Positions 6,574 to 39,481 are shown, numbered from the stretch's first letter. The stretch is DNA of 64,000 bases from Syntrophales bacterium (GCA_963668175.1 OY764159.1:1632001-1696000), one strand, 5' to 3'. The notes: generated by a model from the letters alone, not told the origin. Translations and numbers: made by a program.

Positions 6574-8298
6574 TTAACGCGTGTCTCCGGTCTGCCGCTC
6601 CGCTTTCCTGCGATCCGTGTACTGCCTGTGGAGAAGCCGGTGACTGGCATGACTCAGGGGTTTTCCCAGCACATCGCGATAGAGGGCTTTCACTTGCTCG
6701 TTTTCGTGAGACAGCCGTACCTCGGACTTTTGGTCCGTATCGTAGATCCGCTTCAGGCGCTTCCTGACGCCTTCGAGGTCGGTATCGTAGGGCTGTCCGC
6801 CGCCGCCGACGCAGCCGCCGGGGCAGGTCATGACCTCAATGAAGTGAAGAGACGGGCCGCCGGAGTTCATCGAATCGATCAATGCCTTGACTTCGCCCAG
6901 GCCGTTGACGACGGCGAAGTTGAGGGTTGCCCCTCCGATTGCGAGGGAGAAAACCTTGAGATTATCGAGGCCGCGGGCGGGCATGACTTTGAGCCCCCCC
7001 TTGAGTTCTTCCCCGGTCAGCAGTTTGTGGGCGGTGCGGATGGCCGCCTCCATGACGCCGCCCGTTGCGGCGAATATCCGTCCGGCTCCGGTGGCTTCTG
7101 CAAAAGGGGTATCCAGAGACCCCCGCGCCCCCTTGGGCGACAGGGATGTTCCGAAACGGCCGAGGAGTTCCTTCAGTTCCCGCGTCGTGAGGACCGCATC
7201 GACATCGCCCAGGTCCTGCGCTTCGAACTTCTTGGCGGTGCAGGGCATGATCGAGACGGAGAAGACGCGCTTGCTGCCCGTATCGGCCTTGGCCGGATAG
7301 AATTCCTTGATGAGGGCGCCGCCCATCTGCTGCGGCGATTTACAGGTGGAGAGATGCGGGATCAGCTCCGGCCGGTGAAGCTCCACGTACCGGACCCAGC
7401 CGGGAGAGCAGCTCGTAAACATCGGCAGGGCGCCGCCCGTCTTCACGCGTTCGATCAGTTCCGAGACTTCCTCCATGATCGTCAAGTCCGCCATGAAAGA
7501 CGTATCGAAAACAGCCGCGAAACCGATGCCCTTAAGGGCTCCGGCGAGGATCTCCAGAAGATCCGTCACCGATTTTATTTCCACGTCTTCCAGGAGCGTC
7601 ACCGGAACCGCCGGCGCCACCTGGGCGACGACCGTCGTGTCGGGGTCGGCAAGTGCCCTGATCACCATGTCGACATGGTTCTTTTCCGTCAGGGCGCCCG
7701 TGGGACATACGCGCACGCACTGTCCGCAGTAAATGCATCCCGATACGTTCAGCCCTTTATAGAAGGCCGGATCGATCCTGGTGTCGTAACCCCGCGCCGT
7801 GAAGTCGATGGCGCCGACGCCCTGAACGCCGTGGCATACCGCCACGCACCGCCCGCAGAGGATGCATTTGCTGGGTTCCCTGACGATCGACGGGGAAGAG
7901 ACGTCGATCGGGTGGGTTTTCTTCTTTCCGGAGTACCGCTTCCTGTTGACGCCCAGATCGGAGGCGAGCGAAGACAGTTCGCAGCTGCCGTTGCGGGGGC
8001 AGAAGAGACAGTCGTCGGGATGGCTGGCCAGGAGCAGCTCCAGGATATTGCGCCGGGCCGCCTGAATGCGCGGCGTATGGGTCCGCACCGTCATTCCGTC
8101 CCGGGCGACCGTCGTACAGCTCGTCTGCATGCGCGGCAGGTCGTCCACCTCCACCACGCACAACCGGCAGGCGGCGGGCTGTGAGTGCGCACCCTCAAAG
8201 GTGCAAAGGTGAGGGATTTCGATGCCCGCGCGGCGGGCGGCCTGGAGAATTGTTTCGTTGGGTTTCCATTCGATCTGCGTATTGTTGATGGTTATCAT
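6574..8298 (-). CDS. hydA: [FeFe]-hydrogenase catalytic subunit, group A3 (HydA/HndD-like)
   Basis: [2Fe-2S], His-ligated [4Fe-4S] (HPDDCLFC), 2x[4Fe-4S]; L1 TSCSPGW, L2 MPCTAKKFE, L3 EVMTCPGGCVGGGG. Confidence 0.93.
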   Translation of the reverse strand: MITINNTQIEWKPNETILQAARRAGIEIPHLCTFEGAHSQPAACRLCVVEVDDLPRMQTSCTTVARDGMTVRTHTPRIQAARRNILELLLASHPDDCLFCPRNGSCELSSLASDLGVNRKRYSGKKKTHPIDVSSPSIVREPSKCILCGRCVAVCHGVQGVGAIDFTARGYDTRIDPAFYKGLNVSGCIYCGQCVRVCPTGALTEKNHVDMVIRALADPDTTVVAQVAPAVPVTLLEDVEIKSVTDLLEILAGALKGIGFAAVFDTSFMADLTIMEEVSELIERVKTGGALPMFTSCSPGWVRYVELHRPELIPHLSTCKSPQQMGGALIKEFYPAKADTGSKRVFSVSIMPCTAKKFEAQDLGDVDAVLTTRELKELLGRFGTSLSPKGARGSLDTPFAEATGAGRIFAATGGVMEAAIRTAHKLLTGEELKGGLKVMPARGLDNLKVFSLAIGGATLNFAVVNGLGEVKALIDSMNSGGPSLHFIEVMTCPGGCVGGGGQPYDTDLEGVRKRLKRIYDTDQKSEVRLSHENEQVKALYRDVLGKPLSHASHRLLHRQYTDRRKAERQTGDTR

Positions 8299-27396: not shown

Positions 27397-31164
<3,768 letters not shown>

Positions 31165-31565
31165 ACGGTTGATGGTTTCCAAATATCGTGCCAACGGTAA
31201 CGACCTCAAATGATATATCGTTTGGCGAATATAATCAACTCGTTAATCTGTTGCTAGGGCGCGCCGGATTTCTACGGATCAGGAAAAAGACCCCGGCCTT
31301 CCGTTTTTTCCACCGGATTTGTCTGAAATAGTGGACAGGGTGTGTACGATGCGCGTTGACATAGGGGTGCGATATTCATATTGCAGGGCTGTAAGGCTTG
31401 ATGACGGCGGCGCAAATAGATCATATGATGTTTTTATGAGGCATTTGCTTTAACGGCTTGACTCTTTCCCGGTTTGGTTATACTTTCCATACACATTTCA
31501 AATGGATAATTTTCATTTAATGCGGCATCTCCTCCAAAGATTTAAAAAGACAAACGAGCGAAAAA

Positions 31566-32798
31566 GTGAATAGACATACTCCAGTAATTTCCGCTTTTTC
31601 ATTAGAGGCCAAGATAAAAAGGTCTCTTCGCAATCACTTAAAGAAAATTGGATATACACGAACATCGGACGGTCTTCTTCATCCGCCAGATAAATCCAAA
31701 GAAACTATTCGTGCCTTACACAGTGCTCAACGATCGACTCTTATTAAGAGGGAACATGACTTCATCAAAAGATCCTGGCCAAAATTGAAGACGTACTTTG
31801 CTGACGGGAAAGATGTTGTGCCTGAAGAAATTACACCCGACTTGGAACTTATAGAGGGTGGGACTTGGCAATCTGATCTTTTTAGACTTGCATCACTCTT
31901 ATGGAGTGTTCCTGTTTCAAAAGGTTACGGACGCAGATTGCGTTTCTTGGTTTGGGATAAATCCAATGACAAACTGATAGGACTGTTCGGACTCGGTGAT
32001 CCTGTTTTCAACCTTAGAGTTCGAGATAATCTTCTTGAGTGGACCGCACAGCAAAGGAAAAAACATCTTGTTAGTTTGATGGATGCCTATGTCCTCGGTG
32101 CTGTCCCTCCGTACAATTTTTTATTGTGCGGTAAAATGATTGCGTGCCTGATAAGAACAAGAGAAGTCCGTGACCACTTTTCTGAAAAATATGACAAGAC
32201 AACAGGTATTATTTCTGGCGAGAGCAAACATGCGAAATTGGTTGCTATTACTACATCCTCAGCTCTCGGGAAATCATCTCTTTACAATAGATTGACAGTC
32301 AACGGACAAAAGTATTTCAAATCGATAGGTTTCACTGAAGGTTGGGGACATTTCCACGTCCCTGATTTGTTATTTAAATCCATCAGAGAATACTTGGAAA
32401 TTAAGGGGCACCAATACGCCGGAAACAATCGTTTTGGGGAAGGTCCCAATTGGCGATTACGAGCGATTCGTCAAGTGCTGACATCATTGAAACAAAATCC
32501 AAACTTACTCAAGCACGGAATAGCGCGGGAAGTATTTCTTTGCGAGTTTGCTGCAAATAGTAAGTCCTATTTGACGGACAAGGTTAAGCAACCGAAATAC
32601 AGTGATCTTTTATCTGTCACAGAGGTTGCGAAGCATTCTCTTGCTCGATGGGTCATTCCACGTTCTTTAAGAAAACCTGAATATTGTAGTTGGAAGAGAC
32701 AGAACATACGACATCTTCTGAAACCGTATGGCAACCGAACTGCAGAGGCTGTAATAACCGAACGAAAGGAACTTAAAGTTGGCTCTTGCAAACTTTGA
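31566..32798 (+). CDS. DUF4338/DruA-like protein
   Basis: GYGRRLRFLVWD...IGLFGLGDPVFNLRVRD..LEW, LGAVPPYN.LL.GK, TTSSALG..S.YNR motifs as I recall them for DUF4338/Druantia DruA; no HMM run. Confidence 0.72.
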   Translation: MNRHTPVISAFSLEAKIKRSLRNHLKKIGYTRTSDGLLHPPDKSKETIRALHSAQRSTLIKREHDFIKRSWPKLKTYFADGKDVVPEEITPDLELIEGGTWQSDLFRLASLLWSVPVSKGYGRRLRFLVWDKSNDKLIGLFGLGDPVFNLRVRDNLLEWTAQQRKKHLVSLMDAYVLGAVPPYNFLLCGKMIACLIRTREVRDHFSEKYDKTTGIISGESKHAKLVAITTSSALGKSSLYNRLTVNGQKYFKSIGFTEGWGHFHVPDLLFKSIREYLEIKGHQYAGNNRFGEGPNWRLRAIRQVLTSLKQNPNLLKHGIAREVFLCEFAANSKSYLTDKVKQPKYSDLLSVTEVAKHSLARWVIPRSLRKPEYCSWKRQNIRHLLKPYGNRTAEAVITERKELKVGSCKL

Positions 32799-33945
32799 CT
32801 TGGATTCTCTTCGAGAAAAAGTTTTGGCAGCCTATAAAGTCGATGACCCTCTTCTTAAGAAGTTCAGGGAATACGCTCGACGGCTTGGCGCCAATGTCAA
32901 ACCACTCAGAACATACTCAGTCAATGCAGTGTCCTTTGTATCAGCCGATGGAGGAGATAATCGTCTAACATTCAATCCGGCTATTGTTGAACTCGTTCGA
33001 GTTGTAGACTCTCGTGGTAACCAATGCGCCTTGGATGCTATTGCCAGCACTGCCGGCTCCAATGAGCTGAATGAGCGCATCAAACCAAATACGCCATCTC
33101 TAGTTGCTCCGCTACAACGTCTTTGTAACGACCTTGATATAGAAGATGTTGTCGCGTTATCCTATCTTCTGAAAGCACTCGACGAGCCGGGGAAAAGCAC
33201 AGGAGCAATCCGATGTTATCGTGATATTGTAGAATGGGCTGTACTTTATGACCTCATCTGCAATCCTGCCATTCAATGGGGCAGCGACACAATTCTGATA
33301 AGGGACGGCCTTCTTCGGACGAAGTCATTCAAACGGGAGATATTTCCTAAAATTGATCAAAATATTCGAGAAGGTGTAAAAAAACACCAAGAACGCAATG
33401 TTGCCTTGTCGTTGGTCGGTGTGGCCAAACAGAGCGCAGTTCTTGGTAGATTAGCCGTGGCACTCGAATTAGAAGCGACATTCCACAAACGTTATCCATG
33501 CTTCTGTGAAGTTCCTGAAGACATAGAGAGCGATTGTTACAACTTCGATATAACTTGGCTAAGAACGTATGAATCCTTTGAGTCTGATGATAAAGAAGTG
33601 AAACTTTACCAGTCAATGGGAAAGATGTACCTTGCCAAATTCGGAGACCATCCTTTTGATCCCGTATGGCCGGTTGATATTGCAGTCTGGCAAACGTCAA
33701 ACGCAGAAAAGATTCTTGGTCAACTGACAGTCGATGCACAACAGGGTTTCCCAATTCCTGATTATCCGATGACTATTCAGAAAGCACATGATTTTGCTAA
33801 GCTCAGTGGTTTAGAAGTGGAAGTCCTTCAGGATTTATTAATGCGAGGTATAACTCAAAACCTTGCCCCTGATGAAGCAGAACGAATACTGCGAATGAAA
33901 CATCTTGGAAGAACACTTGCAGCTTTGAGATACAAGGAGGGATGA
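32779..33945 (+). CDS. nurA: NurA-like nuclease (RNase H-like fold)
   Basis: VSADGG, LIRDG, VGVAK.S and C-terminal YP..IQKAH motifs; directly upstream of a HerA-like gene. Confidence 0.75.
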   Translation: MALANFDLDSLREKVLAAYKVDDPLLKKFREYARRLGANVKPLRTYSVNAVSFVSADGGDNRLTFNPAIVELVRVVDSRGNQCALDAIASTAGSNELNERIKPNTPSLVAPLQRLCNDLDIEDVVALSYLLKALDEPGKSTGAIRCYRDIVEWAVLYDLICNPAIQWGSDTILIRDGLLRTKSFKREIFPKIDQNIREGVKKHQERNVALSLVGVAKQSAVLGRLAVALELEATFHKRYPCFCEVPEDIESDCYNFDITWLRTYESFESDDKEVKLYQSMGKMYLAKFGDHPFDPVWPVDIAVWQTSNAEKILGQLTVDAQQGFPIPDYPMTIQKAHDFAKLSGLEVEVLQDLLMRGITQNLAPDEAERILRMKHLGRTLAALRYKEG

Positions 33946-35145
33946 TGCTTTTCGCCAACTCACAAGTCATGGGAACTTTCAAAGGATTTAATGAAAGAGG
34001 TTTGGAATTCGCCGCCGAGATAATAGCCCCATATGACGCCAGTATGCTTGAGCGCCCTCAACTCGGGCAATTCCTTCTAATTGAACTTGGCTCATTGGAA
34101 GAAGCGGCCCTTGGCCGGATTACCCGCTTTGTTCCTTCAGGTCTTCTAGCCACTGCCGAAGGAGAAGACTATGTCAATACAATGCAACGCAGACAACAGG
34201 CCGTTCCTGAAGATCTGAAACAGCAACGGCTTAAGTATCGAGTTCAGGTCAAACTATTGGGTGCAGTTCGTCTTGTTAAAAAAGAAGGCAAAGACACTGT
34301 TACCTACGTACCATCCCAGAGAAGGCTGCCTCATCTCGGCGCTAAAGTAGCCCTTCCCAGTTCGGAAGTTTTAGCTGAACTCTGCAAGTTAAGTAAGGGT
34401 GAAACCGATCTTGGTGACTATGTGCTAGGGGAGTTTGTTTACTCAGGTTCCGATGTTCCAAATGAAAATCCTATTTTGCGTCCAACGGACCCATCTCTGT
34501 CAGTAAAATTTGATATAGGTAACCTAGTTTCACGTAGATCGGTTGTTTTTGCGCGCGCAGGTTATGGTAAGTCCAACCTCATTAAGTATCTTATCTCTGA
34601 ACTATATAAAAAGGGCCAGCCTAAAACTGAAGGTGGGCAAAACGTAGGTACTCTAATTTTCGATGCTGACGGTGAATATTTTTGGCCAGACAGAGTCAAA
34701 CACCGTCCCGGTCTATGCGACGTGACGCATCTCAAGGATCATATTCTTGTATTCACAAACCGCCAACCCTACAATCCATATTATGGAAGCTGGAAAGCAG
34801 GAGAAGTGAGGCTCGATATCCGTGATCTTCCTCCGCGGGATGTTGTAGGAATCGCTGTGTCTTCTGAGCGGCAGGAACAACAGAATATACTCAAATTAAA
34901 AGGTCTGACGGATACAAATTGGAGACAATTAGTTGATTTAATACACAAAGATCGCCTTCAGGCTTCCGAAATCCAAGTCGGTGAATTGATGGGGTATTCG
35001 GAGAAACAGATTAAAGAAAGCGGTGCAGAAATAGCAGCAGCTAAAAGCAACATGAATAACGTTGTCAGGTTGCTACACGATCCAGCAAGTCAACTTCTTT
35101 CAGGCACTCTTCAGGCACTCATGCAAGGTCACATTGGAGTTGCCC

Positions 35146-35994
35146 CTATTTCACCGGACACTGTTCTAACTTATTTTGATGTCTCCTATACTCCCTGGGC
35201 GACATCATTTTCAATCCCTTGTGCGGATGGTTTTCATTGTAGTCTAAGAACCATCCGGGCAGTTGCTTCATGACCGTTTCGGCATCAGTCAGGATATTCA
35301 GATGAATATAATCCCTCTTGAAGGTCTTGACAAAGGATTCGGCCATTCCGTTCGATTCCGGGCTATAGAACGGGGTCGTGCAAACCTCAAGCCCCATCAT
35401 CTGCCCAAAGCTTTTCGTTTCCCTGGCGGTGTACGCAGGACCATTATCGCTCAGCCACTGGATTCTGTGAGGCAGCCGATTGATCATACCGAAACGGGCC
35501 TCAATGGCTTCCGCCATCAAGTCCCTGACCATGTCGCCGGATACGCCCCCTGTCGTGGCTACATAACTCATGATTTCCCTGTCGCAACAATCCATGCTGA
35601 ACGCTACCCGGAGACGGTCCCCATTCCAGCAGGCAATCTCAAACGCATCGGAACACCAACGAAGATCGCTCCGTCTCGTCGTGACCTTGCCCTCGTGAAG
35701 CCTTGCCGGCCTACCCGTATGCCGCTGAAGAAGCAGATTGTGCATCTTCATGAGACGATAAATCCGTTTGGGGTTAACTCCCGGATGCCCCTGACGTTCC
35801 AGAAACCTGTTGATTCTTGCCGTTACTCTCCGATAGCCGTAACTGGGACGATTATCAATAACCTGCCTGATCAGAAGAAGATATCTGCCATCGTCGCCTC
35901 TCCTGTAATGGCGGCTTCTCGAATCGGCTTCCTTCCCTTGCCTTTCGTACTGCCGGGAACGGGAAACGTCCAGCGTATCGACAACCGTCTTCAT
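35146..35994 (-). CDS. IS3-family transposase OrfB (DDE core), probably fused to OrfA by -1 frameshift
   Basis: YGYRR, WCSD, WLSDNG, SNGMAESFVKTFKRDY. Confidence 0.92.
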   Translation of the reverse strand: MKTVVDTLDVSRSRQYERQGKEADSRSRHYRRGDDGRYLLLIRQVIDNRPSYGYRRVTARINRFLERQGHPGVNPKRIYRLMKMHNLLLQRHTGRPARLHEGKVTTRRSDLRWCSDAFEIACWNGDRLRVAFSMDCCDREIMSYVATTGGVSGDMVRDLMAEAIEARFGMINRLPHRIQWLSDNGPAYTARETKSFGQMMGLEVCTTPFYSPESNGMAESFVKTFKRDYIHLNILTDAETVMKQLPGWFLDYNENHPHKGLKMMSPREYRRHQNKLEQCPVK

Positions 35995-36368
35995 CGGGAA
36001 TCGTCCTCCGGCAACAACGGCAACCGCGAGATCAGTTTTTTTTCACGGGCAATCCGGACAGCCTCTCTTAATATCTCCACCTCCATTGTCTTTTTGCCCA
36101 GAAGACGCTCCAACTCCCGGATCTGCTTCTTCAGTTCTCTGGCTTCCGATGCAGGAACGACGCCTTCATCTGCACCAACCGCCGACAGAGCCCCTTCTTC
36201 GGCAAGCCTGCGCCAGTGGAACAACTGGTTCGGATGGATGTCATACTTCCGGGCTACAGCCGAGATGCTCATTCCCGGCTGCTCCGCCTCCCGCACCATC
36301 GACTTCTTCTCGGCAGCCGACCAGCGACGTCGCCTCTGTACACCGACGATCACTTCTACAGGAACCAT
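35991..36368 (-). CDS. IS3-family transposase OrfA (HTH)
   Basis: RRRRWSAAEK...VARKYDIHPNQLFHWR...LERLLGKKTMEVEIL; A8C slippery run at 36036-36043. Confidence 0.9.
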   Translation of the reverse strand: MVPVEVIVGVQRRRRWSAAEKKSMVREAEQPGMSISAVARKYDIHPNQLFHWRRLAEEGALSAVGADEGVVPASEARELKKQIRELERLLGKKTMEVEILREAVRIAREKKLISRLPLLPEDDSR

Positions 36369-37376
36369 AAACACCTTCTTTCTGGTTGTAGTAATATCTC
36401 TATATCTATTCCTACAACTTATTTCCAGATTCAAAGTGTCCGGTTCAATTGGGGGCTACTTCACACATCGTTGTTATCGACATAAGCCTCTTGAGTTCTA
36501 CTGCAGGAAATACAATTGCCGGTCTGATCCTCAGAAGAATCTTTTCTCATAATCAAGAAAATTTTACCGGCGGGCAGTCACCCATTCCGGTTGTAACTGT
36601 GATCGAGGAAGCTCAGAGCGTCCTGGGGAGAAACCTCGATGAATCGAGTCCCTTTGTCGAATGGGTTAAAGAGGGTCGGAAATATGATTTAGGCGCAATA
36701 CTCGTTACTCAACAACCTGGATCTCTAGCTCCAGAACTTATGAGTCAGGCTGATAATTGGTTCAGTTTTCATTTGTTATCGGAAGGCGACGCAGGGGTAC
36801 TCGGTAAATACAATTCTCATTATTCCGATGATATCTTGTCGCACTTAATTGGGGAACCTATCCCTGGTAATTGTTTCATGTGGAGTGCCCCGCATCAGCC
36901 ATTCGTTCTGCCCGTTAGAGTTAGAAGTTTCGAGGGGCTTTATAGAGGCAATGTAAAGTTTGATGATGCATCAGGCGCCGTTCCTGACACTCCGGCGTCT
37001 AAGGTCCACAAAGATGTTTCAGCGAGACTTAATGAATTAGCAGGGAGAATTAAAGAGTCACTCAAAGCGCCTAGTACGAAGTTCGTTCAAGTATCTCCGG
37101 ATAAAGTTGGCATTAAGAGTGGACAACTATACTATCTTATAAGAGATGCCAAAAGTCTCAATGACTATGAAACTGCGAATCAGCTAATGGAACCATTATT
37201 AACAATTATACTTGGCGAAGGTAATTTTCAACAAACCGAGTTCAAAGACAAGGAGTTCTTTTGTTCTTCCCAAGAAAATTGGGCGAAAGCTCTCGGGAAA
37301 AATATTAGAATATCAGTCGGTTAATCATGGGCTACAACAGCATTTATTCAAAAGTAATTTAGATGGAGGAACATAA

Positions 37377-38408
37377 ATGTCGGAAAAGGAATTAACAATG
37401 GAAATGGCAAATCTCATATGCCGATTCGGAAGTGAATTCGTCTTGCTGGATATGCTAGAGCCAATTGTTTTCCCTGCTTTTTTCGGTGAATCAAAAATCA
37501 GAGTCTATGGGGAAACAAGCTTTTTCTTTTTTGATGTCAAACTGGTTCGTCTCAAATCATATGAGAATAATCTCAGATTAGGCATAGCCGGACGATTCAT
37601 TAAAGACACAAAAGTGCAGCGGGACCAAATATTCGAAGAAGGAAAAGGAATCATTAAAGATAGTCGTACGCTGCGTAGTTCTCCATCTGCATTATTTCTG
37701 CTGCTACTTAATAATCATCGGCTAATTTACGTTAAAGAAACAAGAGATGCACCTCCTAAAGACACTTTCCGGACCACGCTCCATTATTTTCTCATGGAAA
37801 GACATAAATCGTTTCTGAGAAAAGCCTTCGAAGACTATAAACTACGACGAAAAAGGGAGCCAGAGACGCCTGTCATGAGAAAGATAGACTTTCTTGAATT
37901 GTTTCCTCCGCCGAGTCTAAAGCTGATTCCGCTGACATCTGAAGATAGTATTCAAGAATTCATCAATAAGTACGAACTATTGAGATCAATAGAAATTTCT
38001 ATATCAGATAGAAATAGCGAGATTGATAATGATTCATTCTTTGAGGAATTGAATCGGCGAAAAGAATTGCTCGGAAGTAAAAAATCAGCTGTTAAACATT
38101 CTAGTCGTAACGGCCTGGATAAAGAAATTGCGAAAAACGAAGTAAGAGAAGCAACGAGTCAGGGAAATCAGGTGGTTAATTTAGATGGATACGACACTGA
38201 AGGAAATAAATTACAAGGCAATAATGAAAAATTCCAGTTAAGAAGATCAATTGAAGTGAGCGAAAAAATGGATGAAGCAATATCGCAGCTGGATCAATCA
38301 TTTATGGATCTAGTTAAGGCCGGTGTAGTGAAAGTACCGGAAGAACGTGAAAAAGATAAAGAGATTTTACGTTCAATTTATCGAGGCCATTATGACAAAA
38401 GCCGATAA
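37377..38408 (+). CDS. Hypothetical soluble protein (DUF4747-like, tentative)
   Basis: AT-rich 343-aa ORF with GGAGGA RBS; GRFIK...HRLIY...AP...F pattern; family guess only. Confidence 0.65.
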   Translation: MSEKELTMEMANLICRFGSEFVLLDMLEPIVFPAFFGESKIRVYGETSFFFFDVKLVRLKSYENNLRLGIAGRFIKDTKVQRDQIFEEGKGIIKDSRTLRSSPSALFLLLLNNHRLIYVKETRDAPPKDTFRTTLHYFLMERHKSFLRKAFEDYKLRRKREPETPVMRKIDFLELFPPPSLKLIPLTSEDSIQEFINKYELLRSIEISISDRNSEIDNDSFFEELNRRKELLGSKKSAVKHSSRNGLDKEIAKNEVREATSQGNQVVNLDGYDTEGNKLQGNNEKFQLRRSIEVSEKMDEAISQLDQSFMDLVKAGVVKVPEEREKDKEILRSIYRGHYDKSR

Positions 38409-39048
38409 TTTAAATTCTGCGGAATTGACCAGTGAAAAAAGATTATGTGAAATTTATCATAAGTCAAGAAAAATCCCGATGAGTAAATTCAATTTATGGT
38501 CAACTCTGATTGTTATGGTTTCTTTGTCCATCAATGTTTGGATTTCAAATCAGTCAATTGGTGATATGCTCGACATCATCAGAAAATCAGCTGAAAATGG
38601 CTTATCAATTTCTCTCAATACCCTTGGTTTTCTCATCGCAGGATTCACGGTATTTGCTACTTTGTCTAGTCCCGATCTGTCCCTTGAAATGGCAAATCAT
38701 ACGCATTCAGAAAGTGGATTATCATACTTGAAATACAATTATTTTGTTTTATTGAGGGTATTTGTACATTTCATAATTTTTGCAGGATTCTGTCTCGCCA
38801 TAGTGATGTATGGTCACAAAAATGGATTAGTATCATCATTAATAGCATCAGTAATATTAAAGTATCCGAAACTTTCTTTTTTACGTGATTGCCTTGTTGA
38901 AATATCATATGTGCTTATTTATACTGGATATTATTTCCTTCTCGTTCAATTGAAATCTTTCATATTTAACATTTACCATATCGTAATGACTTCTCTAAGA
39001 TGGAAAGCCGAACAAGGAACCGTCAGTGACAGTGCCCACATCGAATAG
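38392..39048 (+). CDS. Hypothetical multi-pass membrane protein (about 4 TM)
   Basis: Hydrophobic segments including LGFLIAGFTVFATL; overlaps the upstream ORF. Confidence 0.72.
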   Translation: MTKADNLNSAELTSEKRLCEIYHKSRKIPMSKFNLWSTLIVMVSLSINVWISNQSIGDMLDIIRKSAENGLSISLNTLGFLIAGFTVFATLSSPDLSLEMANHTHSESGLSYLKYNYFVLLRVFVHFIIFAGFCLAIVMYGHKNGLVSSLIASVILKYPKLSFLRDCLVEISYVLIYTGYYFLLVQLKSFIFNIYHIVMTSLRWKAEQGTVSDSAHIE

Positions 39049-39086
39049 AACCGCCAATCAATTATCTATCAATTATTCAGACAGTA

Positions 39087-39115
39087 TTGACAAGGGTTAG
39101 CATATATGCTAACTA
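39087..39115 (+). promoter_or_regulatory. Promoter with perfect 18-bp palindromic operator
   Basis: TTGACA at 39087; GTTAGCATATATGCTAAC at 39096-39113, just upstream of the XRE gene. Confidence 0.65.
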
Positions 39116-39121
39116 ATCTTC

Positions 39122-39481
39122 ATGGCTGAACTGAAATATAAACCCGTTCCCCACGACCATAAGGCCTTTCTCGATAAGGCCCGGAAGCGGGAGGGATTCG
39201 ATAAGGCATACCGCGATTTGGAAGAAGAATATGCGCTCGTCCGGGCGATGCTGTCGGCCCGGTCGAAATCCGGCCTTACCCAGGAGGCGGTTGCCGCGTT
39301 GATGGGAACGACGAAAAGCGCCGTCTCGCGCCTGGAATCCGCCGGGAAACATTCGCCCTCCGTGGCAACGCTGAAAAAGTACGCCCGTGCCCTCGGCTAT
39401 CGTCTGGAGATTAAATTCAAACCCGGAATCGTTCCCGCAAGCCGAGCGACCGGCGGATTGAAAAAGAAGCAGGCCTTCTAA
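39122..39481 (+). CDS. XRE-family HTH protein (HigA-like antitoxin), no adjacent toxin
   Basis: ARSKSGLTQEAVAALMGTTKSAVSRLES...PSVATLKKYARALG. Confidence 0.85.
   Translation: MAELKYKPVPHDHKAFLDKARKREGFDKAYRDLEEEYALVRAMLSARSKSGLTQEAVAALMGTTKSAVSRLESAGKHSPSVATLKKYARALGYRLEIKFKPGIVPASRATGGLKKKQAF

Follow-up and report, generated by a model that had tools for sequence, protein, structure and literature searches.

Within a 64,000-nucleotide stretch of the genome of a Syntrophales bacterium (GCA_963668175.1, OY764159.1:1632001-1696000; hereafter the window), we examined three overlapping genes, which encode a DruA-family protein, a NurA-like nuclease, and a HerA-like ATPase. The three genes constitute a conserved module, which occurs in related loci in two gene orders, and in a sister clade of the nuclease the slot of DruA is occupied by a DNA methyltransferase. 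On the reading that we favor, whose chances we regard as evenly balanced, the triad would be a restriction-modification-like system directed against invaders, in which DruA provides the discrimination between self and nonself, most likely by the covalent marking of DNA. In particular, the HerA-like protein would form a hexameric ATPase pumping double-stranded DNA into a dimer of the NurA-like nuclease, and this dimer would degrade the DNA fed by the ring. The choice of the DNA to be spared would fall to DruA, which would most likely attach a covalent mark to the DNA of the host, and incoming DNA devoid of the mark would be destroyed. The homology of the nuclease-ATPase pair to TdpAB and NurA-HerA is apparent from their sequences, and it is from this homology that we infer its activity, while the marking step is suggested by the position of the druA gene and by its exchange with the methyltransferase.

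The conservation of the module was assessed by scanning species-representative genomes with an alignment of the NurA-like family (A3). Among the 128 confirmed relatives, 80 loci were kept, the gene content of which was derived from tblastn searches and clustering of open reading frames (ORFs). In these loci, which belong to many phyla, the NurA-like gene was recognized in 74 cases and the herA gene in 73, and, apart from contig ends and decayed genes, the two always lie side by side. A druA gene occurs in 39 of the 80 loci, and a different gene, coding for a protein of 370 to 460 amino acids, occurs in 24 of them. The latter product corresponds to an N6/N4 DNA methyltransferase, as PF01555 was matched by all four proteins tested and the PADLOC MTase_II model by two out of two.

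The distribution of the two partners follows the phylogeny of the nuclease. In a maximum-likelihood tree built from 71 full-length NurA-like proteins (those of 70 loci and that of the window, with ORFs shorter than 330 amino acids dropped), two clades are separated by a branch of length 2.03, with a Shimodaira-Hasegawa-like approximate likelihood ratio test (SH-aLRT) support of 100%. The clade of the window features DruA in 37 of 44 rows, namely, upstream in 23 and downstream of HerA in 14, the latter being the Bacteroidota-type order, and the other seven rows have no partner. In the sister clade, the methyltransferase occupies the slot of DruA in 22 of 27 rows, being immediately upstream in 21 of them; two rows are devoid of a partner, and three lie at contig edges. 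Either DruA or the methyltransferase is present in 59 of the 71 rows, and the partner labels require 8 changes on the tree, compared to a mean of 35.9 for shuffled labels. 

As regards the window itself, the original prediction had described three overlapping AT-rich genes in a GC-rich chromosome, encoding a DUF4338/DruA-like protein, a NurA-like nuclease with its catalytic motifs, and an ATPase with the HerA motifs, and all these features were confirmed. The druA gene (31566 to 32798, plus strand) starts with GTG and encodes 410 amino acids, and its 3' end overlaps by 20 bp the gene of the NurA-like (TdpB-like) nuclease (32779 to 33945, plus strand; TTG start, 388 amino acids). The ATG of the herA/tdpA-like gene overlaps in turn the TGA stop codon of the nuclease gene (ATGA), behind an AAGGAGG sequence at 33934 to 33940. 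The herA gene is split by an insertion sequence (IS) into a 5' part (33942 to 35134, plus strand), comprising codons 1 to 397 and two further bases, and a 3' part (36469 to 37324, plus strand), which holds a Walker-B-like motif and the C-terminal region. The three genes are co-directional and share the same AT-rich islet of about 7.8 kb (roughly 31250 to 39100), with a GC fraction of 0.33 to 0.48 (0.40 to 0.48 between 31500 and 35000, and 0.33 to 0.39 between 37000 and 39000) in surroundings of 0.56 to 0.66. Promoter and terminator scans of the islet performed no better than those of shuffled sequences, no direct repeats were found around the islet, and no tRNA genes were found in the 64-kb window.

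The sequence of the first gene product identifies it unambiguously as a DruA-family protein, since PF14236 (DUF4338) is its sole Pfam family (E = 6.1e-84) and the PADLOC DruA1 model PDLC00002 covers its residues 4 to 398 (E = 9.5e-180). Its AlphaFold model (pLDDT [predicted score in the local distance difference test] of 85.8 and predicted template modeling score [pTM] of 0.84) resembles, through weak structural matches, a GNAT-fold protein. Nearly all the leading Foldseek matches of the model share this fold, including malonyl-CoA decarboxylase, KKT23, SpeG, TmcA, Mom, GCN5, and NAA60, and the GNAT reading agrees with PMC10853773, passages of which call DUF4338 a GNAT domain. In the BFVD viral library, the best matches of the model are uncharacterized giant-virus proteins from Faunusvirus (E = 4.5e-20), Yasminevirus (E = 2.5e-16), and Dasosvirus (E = 1.9e-9). 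A protein of an uncultured tailed phage is matched as well (E = 3.5e-8, template modeling [TM] score of 0.76 to the target), and Mom of phage FSL SP-031 ranks lower in the results (E = 7.3e-3). Viral DruA-like copies would fit a role in DNA marking or in mimicry.

That DruA could be a marking enzyme is suggested, first of all, by the DNA methyltransferase that holds the same slot in the sister clade and presumably marks the DNA of the host. This finding sharpens the DNA-marking option that the original prediction had considered for DruA. Doron et al. are said to have described in 2018 a Druantia type II with a methylase, DruM, where type I has DruA, which would represent another, independent instance of this exchange. 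A further indication comes from TdpABC, whose third gene makes a protective phosphorothioate, according to passages of PMC12914056. Moreover, GNAT-fold enzymes can modify DNA, an example being Mom, which is presented in parts of PMC7261163 and PMC13219725 as a GNAT-fold enzyme acting on DNA adenine. The structural matches of DruA do include nucleic acid modifiers, i.e., TmcA and Mom of phage Mu (8bv8_A; probability of 0.92, TM score of 0.43 to the target). We also put forward, much more tentatively and as a conjecture with a rather small chance of being right, that DruA writes an acyl-type (or aminoacyl-derived) covalent mark on DNA, which would be read both by the NurA-HerA machine and by the DruBCDE proteins of Druantia type I. 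If this were true, a shared DruA mark would explain the exchange between DruA and methyltransferase in the NurA-HerA family, and the acyl-type mark would represent an epigenetic self-marking beyond methylation, phosphorothioation, and 7-deazaguanines.

DruA is not confined to the triad. The protein of the window is 49 to 53% identical to the DruA of plasmid operons of Nitrosococcus, Pseudomonas putida, and Ralstonia UW163, in which DruA is accompanied by two or three unnamed proteins and by a large DEAD-box helicase and which thus correspond to Druantia type I; the Druantia set of Ralstonia UW163 is complete according to passages of PMC7251935. DruA can be regarded as a portable module: it also heads the operons of Druantia type I, with an identity of about 50%, and it diverges more rapidly than the other two proteins of the triad (see the values below). 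In a quick tree, three Druantia-type DruA proteins are nested among those of the triads (14-row clade, SH-aLRT of 99), and a topology keeping all the triad DruA proteins together was not rejected by the approximately unbiased test (P = 0.151). For this reason, the only claim that we make is that the sequences of triad and Druantia DruA proteins form one family without clear separation. A different arrangement was observed in a Roseivivax plasmid (L085, 8813 to 10801), in which a 662-amino-acid protein annotated as DruA is encoded after an "ATP-binding protein" gene and no DruE lies in the vicinity. It represents a third context of DUF4338, perhaps a DndF-type fusion of the kind treated in parts of PMC10853773.

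On the basis of sequence profiles and structural modeling, the middle gene product is assigned to the NurA family, with TdpB as its nearest solved relative. The 388-amino-acid protein of the window, when searched alone, matches no Pfam or NCBIfam family, and against PADLOC 2.0 it yielded only a chance-level match to Cas8b (E = 7.8e-4), with no match for two orthologues. The family to which it belongs is large, with 751 clusters at 90% identity (E <= 1e-3), the best 120 listed being 69 to 100% identical, and 298 representatives at 50% identity (E <= 1e-3). The Pfam NurA family was matched by 17 of 53 diverse members (best E = 3.2e-12). When the family profile was compared with the PDB, TdpB was retrieved with an E value of 2.7e-16 and NurA of S. 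solfataricus (2ygk) weakly, with an E value of 0.2. The AlphaFold model (pLDDT of 72.3, pTM of 0.71) gave a consistent picture, with TdpB (8wet_G) as the top Foldseek match (E = 8e-13, TM score of 0.56 to 0.62, and 16 to 17% structure-based identity), followed by the NurA structures 3tai (E = 8.6e-4) and 2ygk (E = 2.8e-3).

The residues expected in the active site are retained. In S. solfataricus NurA, the active site comprises D58, E116, and D133, with K202 and Y298, as reported in passages of PMC3326311. In the NurA-like family, alignment A3 shows D57, E152, K217, and H337 to be invariant, as the closer alignment A1 does for D176 and Y329. In the comparison of the family profile with the PDB, D57 and Y329 fall opposite the segments of 2ygk containing D58 and Y298, and E152, D176, and K217 align with the matching motifs of TdpB. 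The protein, predicted to be an RNase-H-like nuclease, keeps the D/E/D triad together with the Lys/Tyr pair. A search of the NurA-like protein against plasmids gave no match.

The third gene encodes an ATPase whose 5' part matches the Pfam DUF87/HerA central domain (E = 5.5e-20) and contains the Walker A motif A-R-A-G-Y-G-K-S at residues 204 to 211, whereas the Walker-B-like motif V-V-T-V-I-E-E-A-Q lies in the 3' part. The PADLOC HerA models match the two parts modestly (best E = 2.1e-14), and the NCBIfam HerA_antiphage models fall far below their cutoff (34 versus 800 bits). In phmmer searches of the PDB, the best match of the 3' part is TdpA (8wet_A, E = 6.2e-17), followed by the chains of Sir2-HerA, DUF4297-HerA, and archaeal HerA, and the 5' part alone gave no match at an E value of <=0.01. 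Sequence comparisons and models thus indicate that the nuclease-ATPase pair is a NurA-HerA-type machine, the nearest characterized relative of which is the anti-phage restriction complex TdpAB.

In the window, herA is broken after codon 397 by an IS of 1,329 bp (35135 to 36463, minus strand), and the two halves correspond to contiguous codons in the uninterrupted homologue of another triad locus (L001), with which the 5' part shares 82% identity. The element is flanked by a perfect 5-bp duplication, CACAT (35130 to 35134 and 36464 to 36468), and without the IS and one of the two CACAT copies, herA is in frame and encodes 682 amino acids, with intact homologues having mostly 681 to 685. Both transposase ORFs, orfA (35991 to 36434, minus strand) and orfB (35146 to 35994, minus strand), are open and carry the Pfam HTH_Tnp_1 and rve domains, and the terminal inverted repeats are imperfect. 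With 196 bits for the NCBIfam model transpos_IS3 (cutoff of 160) and an E value of 3.4e-76 for the IS2 TnpB, the insertion is an apparently intact element of the IS3 family, IS2 group; its end sequence occurs only once within the 64-kb window. Since the duplication is perfect and neither half of herA shows any other lesion, the insertion looks recent and is by itself the cause of the inactivation. Because it separates the Walker A motif from the Walker-B-like motif, the system cannot work in this genome, and the copy of the triad in the window is inactive.

Several observations weigh against a role of DruA in DNA marking. No Foldseek match of the DruA model was found in the PDB at an E value of <=1e-3, so that the GNAT assignment is one of weak structural matches, and searches of the PDB with the sequence or a profile of DruA returned chance-level matches only. 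Fused or longer forms of the NurA-like protein, including DruA-NurA fusions, were not found in what was a weak search. Passages of PMC10853773 interpret DUF4338 in DndF fusions as a co-effector, which may target protein, rather than DNA. Furthermore, NurA-like/HerA pairs with neither DruA nor methyltransferase nearby account for 7 of the 44 rows of the clade of the window and 2 of the 27 rows of the sister clade (L041, L042, L043, L035, L038, L039, L045, L058, and L060), and they are found mostly among ordinary metabolic genes. As a constitutive restriction nuclease without its marker should be lethal, the pair must either lack toxicity of its own or have its marker encoded elsewhere in those genomes. 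These nine pairs out of 71 are awkward for a constitutive restriction nuclease and fit a sensor model. Finally, the median identity to the window across loci is 43% for DruA, 65% for the NurA-like protein, and 71% for the 5' part of HerA, and the identity of DruA is below that of both partners in 33 of 35 loci. Judged by these values, DruA evolves faster than its partners, which would also fit a sensor engaged in an arms race.

It could therefore be proposed that DruA is a sensor or licensing subunit, which detects an infection cue, such as a phage protein or a DNA structure, and activates an otherwise idle NurA-HerA machine. In this case, the partnerless pairs may simply be harmless until activated, and the rapid divergence of DruA would be that of an arms-race sensor. 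The 20-bp overlap between druA and the nuclease gene, suggestive of translational coupling, and the fact that DruA serves a different effector set in Druantia type I are also in line with this explanation. However, the same slot in 22 of 27 rows of the sister clade holds a DNA methyltransferase and not a sensor, the gene order is variable, with DruA downstream in 14 rows, and the enzyme-like GNAT core with many invariant residues, such as R123, R124, and H264 among those of DruA, argues for catalysis. We consider a sensor or licensing role to be unlikely on the whole, although worthy of serious attention.

The co-effector interpretation in PMC10853773, proposed there for DUF4338 domains fused to DndF in the passages concerned, leads to another explanation, in which DruA would be a second effector, either back-up or suicidal, acting as a GNAT acyltransferase on host or phage proteins or on charged tRNA when the nuclease is blocked. 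The GNAT fold, weakly supported as it is, would be compatible with this activity. One would not expect a toxic effector to be exchanged for a DNA methyltransferase, though, and its presence as the conserved leading gene in two distinct systems, based on nucleases or helicases, would be odd; in addition, no conserved antitoxin-like partner is found beside DruA. This explanation thus seems improbable to us. A restriction-like system with DruA as the discriminating component is the reading that we retain in the following.

Evidence of mobility was found both in the window and in the related loci. Proteins 61 to 80% identical to the NurA-like protein of the window occur in metagenome-assembled genomes (MAGs) of many phyla, the titles of which refer to Nitrospirota, Spirochaetota, Ignavibacteriales, Gammaproteobacteria, Planctomycetota, and Acidobacteria, as well as to Latescibacterota, Firmicutes, Bacteroidia, Obscuribacterales, and Gemmatimonadales. 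The GC fraction of the triad is at least 0.05 below that of the flanks in 16 of the 32 loci with enough flank. These sequence features support the view of the triad as a horizontally mobile module. The original prediction of a horizontally acquired three-gene module is thus upheld by the retention of DruA in most rows of the clade, by the relatives across phyla, and by the low GC content in half of these loci, and the survey of homologous neighborhoods that it had proposed as a check revealed both the conservation of the triad and the presence of defense genes among its neighbors.

The latter were identified by scanning 119 ORFs, two on each side of the triad, in 34 of 38 DruA-bearing loci; the loci omitted were L009 and L014, which nearly duplicate L008, L029, whose flanks were unusable, and L040, which has decayed, and ORFs scanned earlier were left aside as well, and with no matched control, the result is a qualitative picture rather than a measured enrichment. 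Restriction systems are represented by type I restriction-modification genes (L001 and L003), type ISP (L004), a type III methylase with the Res subunit (L026), MamI (L030), and GmrSD (L001, L003, L007, and L031). The other neighbors include a YhcG nuclease together with a dGTPase-like HD protein (L001), OLD-TOPRIM paired with UvrD (L023), Schlafen/AlbA_2 (L006), HigB (L008 and L016), BrnT (L019), Uma2 with an SNF2 helicase (L036), HNH_2 with Hypoth_Ymh (L037), and DUF4747 (L033). Moreover, in loci of Bacteroidota type (L024, at 6892 to 7998, L025, L026, and L030), a regulator combining a helix-turn-helix (HTH) domain and an M78 peptidase lies immediately upstream of the nuclease gene. It matches the PADLOC model PD-Lambda-2_B (E = 1e-41) and is also similar to RmrA and CapP, which suggests a control responsive to damage or infection. 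No repair genes were seen in the flanks scanned, and the context of the triad is, in qualitative terms, one of defense and not of repair.

These data bear on the possibility that the pair is a housekeeping NurA-HerA machine for end resection in DNA repair, with DruA as an unrelated neighbor. NurA-HerA is indeed a known resection complex in archaea and Deinococcus, as stated in the portions of the literature considered here, and some of the partnerless pairs are located among ordinary genes. Nonetheless, no mre11/rad50 (sbcCD) genes adjoin the triad of the window or were found in the scanned flanks of the related loci, in line, as far as the window is concerned, with what the original prediction had noticed. 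The distribution across phyla at 61 to 80% identity is patchy, the genes of the window lie in an AT-rich islet, and DruA or the methyltransferase accompanies the pair in 59 of 71 rows. In addition, the closest solved relatives are the anti-phage TdpAB proteins and not repair complexes, and herA tolerates IS disruption in both the window and L055. We therefore regard a repair function as extremely improbable.

The equally anticipated lack of other dru genes was verified by a PADLOC scan of DruA and five other islet proteins, in which no druB, druC, druD, or druE gene was found adjoining the triad, the neighbors being instead a histidine kinase gene, an XRE regulator gene, CoA-transferase genes, and others. 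A DruE-like helicase (PADLOC DruE3, E values of 6.1e-69 to 2.5e-90) is directly adjacent to the triad in L006 (13397 to 17125), L017 (11232 to 16316), and L036 (12406 to 17145), which raises the question of whether DruA serves both machines. The triad could accordingly be viewed as a variant of Druantia type I in which NurA-HerA replaces DruBCD and DruE is still needed, nearby or elsewhere in the genome, and the common DruA family would agree with this view. However, the helicase is present within the examined stretch in only 3 of 38 DruA-bearing loci, the histidine kinase is the only ORF longer than 1,270 amino acids in the 64-kb window and the only one above 1,000 amino acids near the islet, and defense systems often merely sit side by side. 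Such a variant appears very improbable.

Decay of the module is not restricted to the window. In L055 (10133 to 12765), an insertion containing an IS1-type transposase ORF interrupts herA, the herA genes of L034 and L053 are each divided into two ORFs, and all three genes are fragmented in L040, L066, and L072. Some of this damage may be due to errors in MAG assembly, and its repeated occurrence across loci suggests that the module is often costly.

As for the genes around the triad, the left neighbor is the GC-rich histidine kinase gene (27397 to 31209, minus strand). To the right of the triad are two genes without assigned function, the XRE regulator gene, the GC-rich CoA-transferase genes, and acyl-CoA dehydrogenase genes. 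The first of the two lies at 37377 to 38408 (plus strand) and encodes a DUF4747-related protein of 343 amino acids; the second, at 38347 to 39048 (plus strand), encodes a protein of 233 amino acids with three hydrophobic segments according to hydropathy. Both lie in the AT-rich islet outside the triad and had no tblastn match in any of the 80 related loci, and for this reason, we do not consider them part of the module. Among the homologues of the 343-amino-acid protein, 19 of 113 matched PF15931/DUF4747, and an Atlas lead pointed to DUF4747/DUF6731/RexA; the gene pair at 37377 to 39048 could be a second defense pair, made of a sensor and a membrane protein as in RexAB. In L033, a DUF4747 gene (Pfam E = 1.4e-15) and an ORF of 209 amino acids directly follow the triad. 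The direct comparisons (E = 2.6 and E = 0.006) were too weak for assigning the two pairs to the same system. The XRE-family HTH gene (39122 to 39481; HTH_3, E = 2.8e-13), located at the right edge of the islet and with a host-like GC content, also gave weak MqsA- and Xre-antitoxin-like matches, and HTH_3 genes (cluster C12) also lie near the triad in L008, L016, and L019, at a distance of a few hundred bases.

The original prediction had suggested that the combination of the three genes is not a named system. In agreement with this, PADLOC 2.0 has no model for the NurA-like protein, and no description of the triad was found in PADLOC 2.0 or in the literature searched, although the supplements of the Aravind-group papers might list it; NurA is mentioned in neither PMC10853773 nor PMC12839542, both from that group. 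What is new compared to that prediction is that the nuclease-ATPase pair is most like TdpAB, so that the kind of system is already known. 

The recognition of Druantia type I as an anti-phage system goes back to 2018, and no biochemical role for DruA was found in the literature searched. The same DruA family is found here in a far simpler, three-gene setting, where the other two components have solved and mechanistically understood relatives in TdpAB. If DruA marks DNA, the triad would reveal a new modification chemistry for self-recognition and explain part of Druantia; if it does not, the triad would still be a compact model of how a NurA-HerA shredder is kept off the DNA of the host.

Compared to the known systems, the triad shares with Druantia type I a first gene of the same DruA family, 49 to 53% identical to the DruA of the plasmid operons. 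The Druantia operon also includes DruE, a large YprA-type helicase of about 1,800 to 2,100 amino acids. Different from that operon, the islet of the window encodes no DruB, DruC, DruD, or DruE according to PADLOC, and the effector would be NurA-HerA; lacking DruB to DruE, the triad is not a Druantia type I system. The same two protein families make up the NurA-HerA resection complex of archaea and Deinococcus, the ATPase being a P-loop protein of the FtsK/HerA type. However, the triad has no linkage to mre11/rad50, and it is found in a mobile islet and in a defense neighborhood. Moreover, the Pfam NurA match is weak or below threshold in the family of the window and nonexistent for the window protein itself. 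Without mre11/rad50, the triad does not qualify as a repair NurA-HerA operon.

The coupling of a HerA/FtsK ATPase to an effector is also a feature of the HerA-based defense systems, i.e., Sir2-HerA, DUF4297-HerA, DndFGH, the HerA/FtsK "capture" systems, and BRC, from which the triad differs in having no Sir2, DUF4297, DndF/G, PglZ, or TGT (Pfam and PADLOC); it belongs neither to Sir2-HerA nor to DUF4297-HerA. For the BRC systems, passages of PMC12839542 propose that the GNAT and TGT modules may mark host DNA. As to Mom of phage Mu, the likeness would consist of a GNAT fold acting on DNA, and Mom is present among the structural matches of DruA. Nevertheless, these matches are weak and not accompanied by sequence similarity, DruA, with its additional helical parts at the N and C termini, has about double the length, and Mom is a counter-defense enzyme of the phage and not a self-marker of the host. 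With respect to classical restriction-modification, no DNA methyltransferase is encoded in the islet of the window (Pfam and PADLOC), whereas the sister clade has one.

The closest resemblance is to TdpABC, a phosphorothioate-based anti-phage system in which TdpC is a single-gene phosphorothioation enzyme and TdpAB is the restriction half, as known from the PDB entries 8wet and 8wfd and from passages of PMC12914056 and PMC13223576. Both systems have three genes, with a DNA-marking enzyme, the NurA-like TdpB, and the HerA-like TdpA in one case and DruA, whose marking activity is only proposed, the NurA-like nuclease, and the HerA-like ATPase in the other, and among solved structures, the nuclease and the ATPase of the window are matched best by TdpB and TdpA, respectively. 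Different from TdpABC, the first gene of the triad encodes DruA (DUF4338, GNAT-like) and not, judging from its Pfam family and fold matches, TdpC, and the triad is hosted by diverse MAGs of many phyla, whereas tdp is placed in extremophilic bacteria in the relevant part of PMC12914056. Having no phosphorothioation enzyme, the triad is not a member of TdpABC. Reasoning by analogy, the best reading is that it would nonetheless work like TdpABC and like restriction-modification in general.

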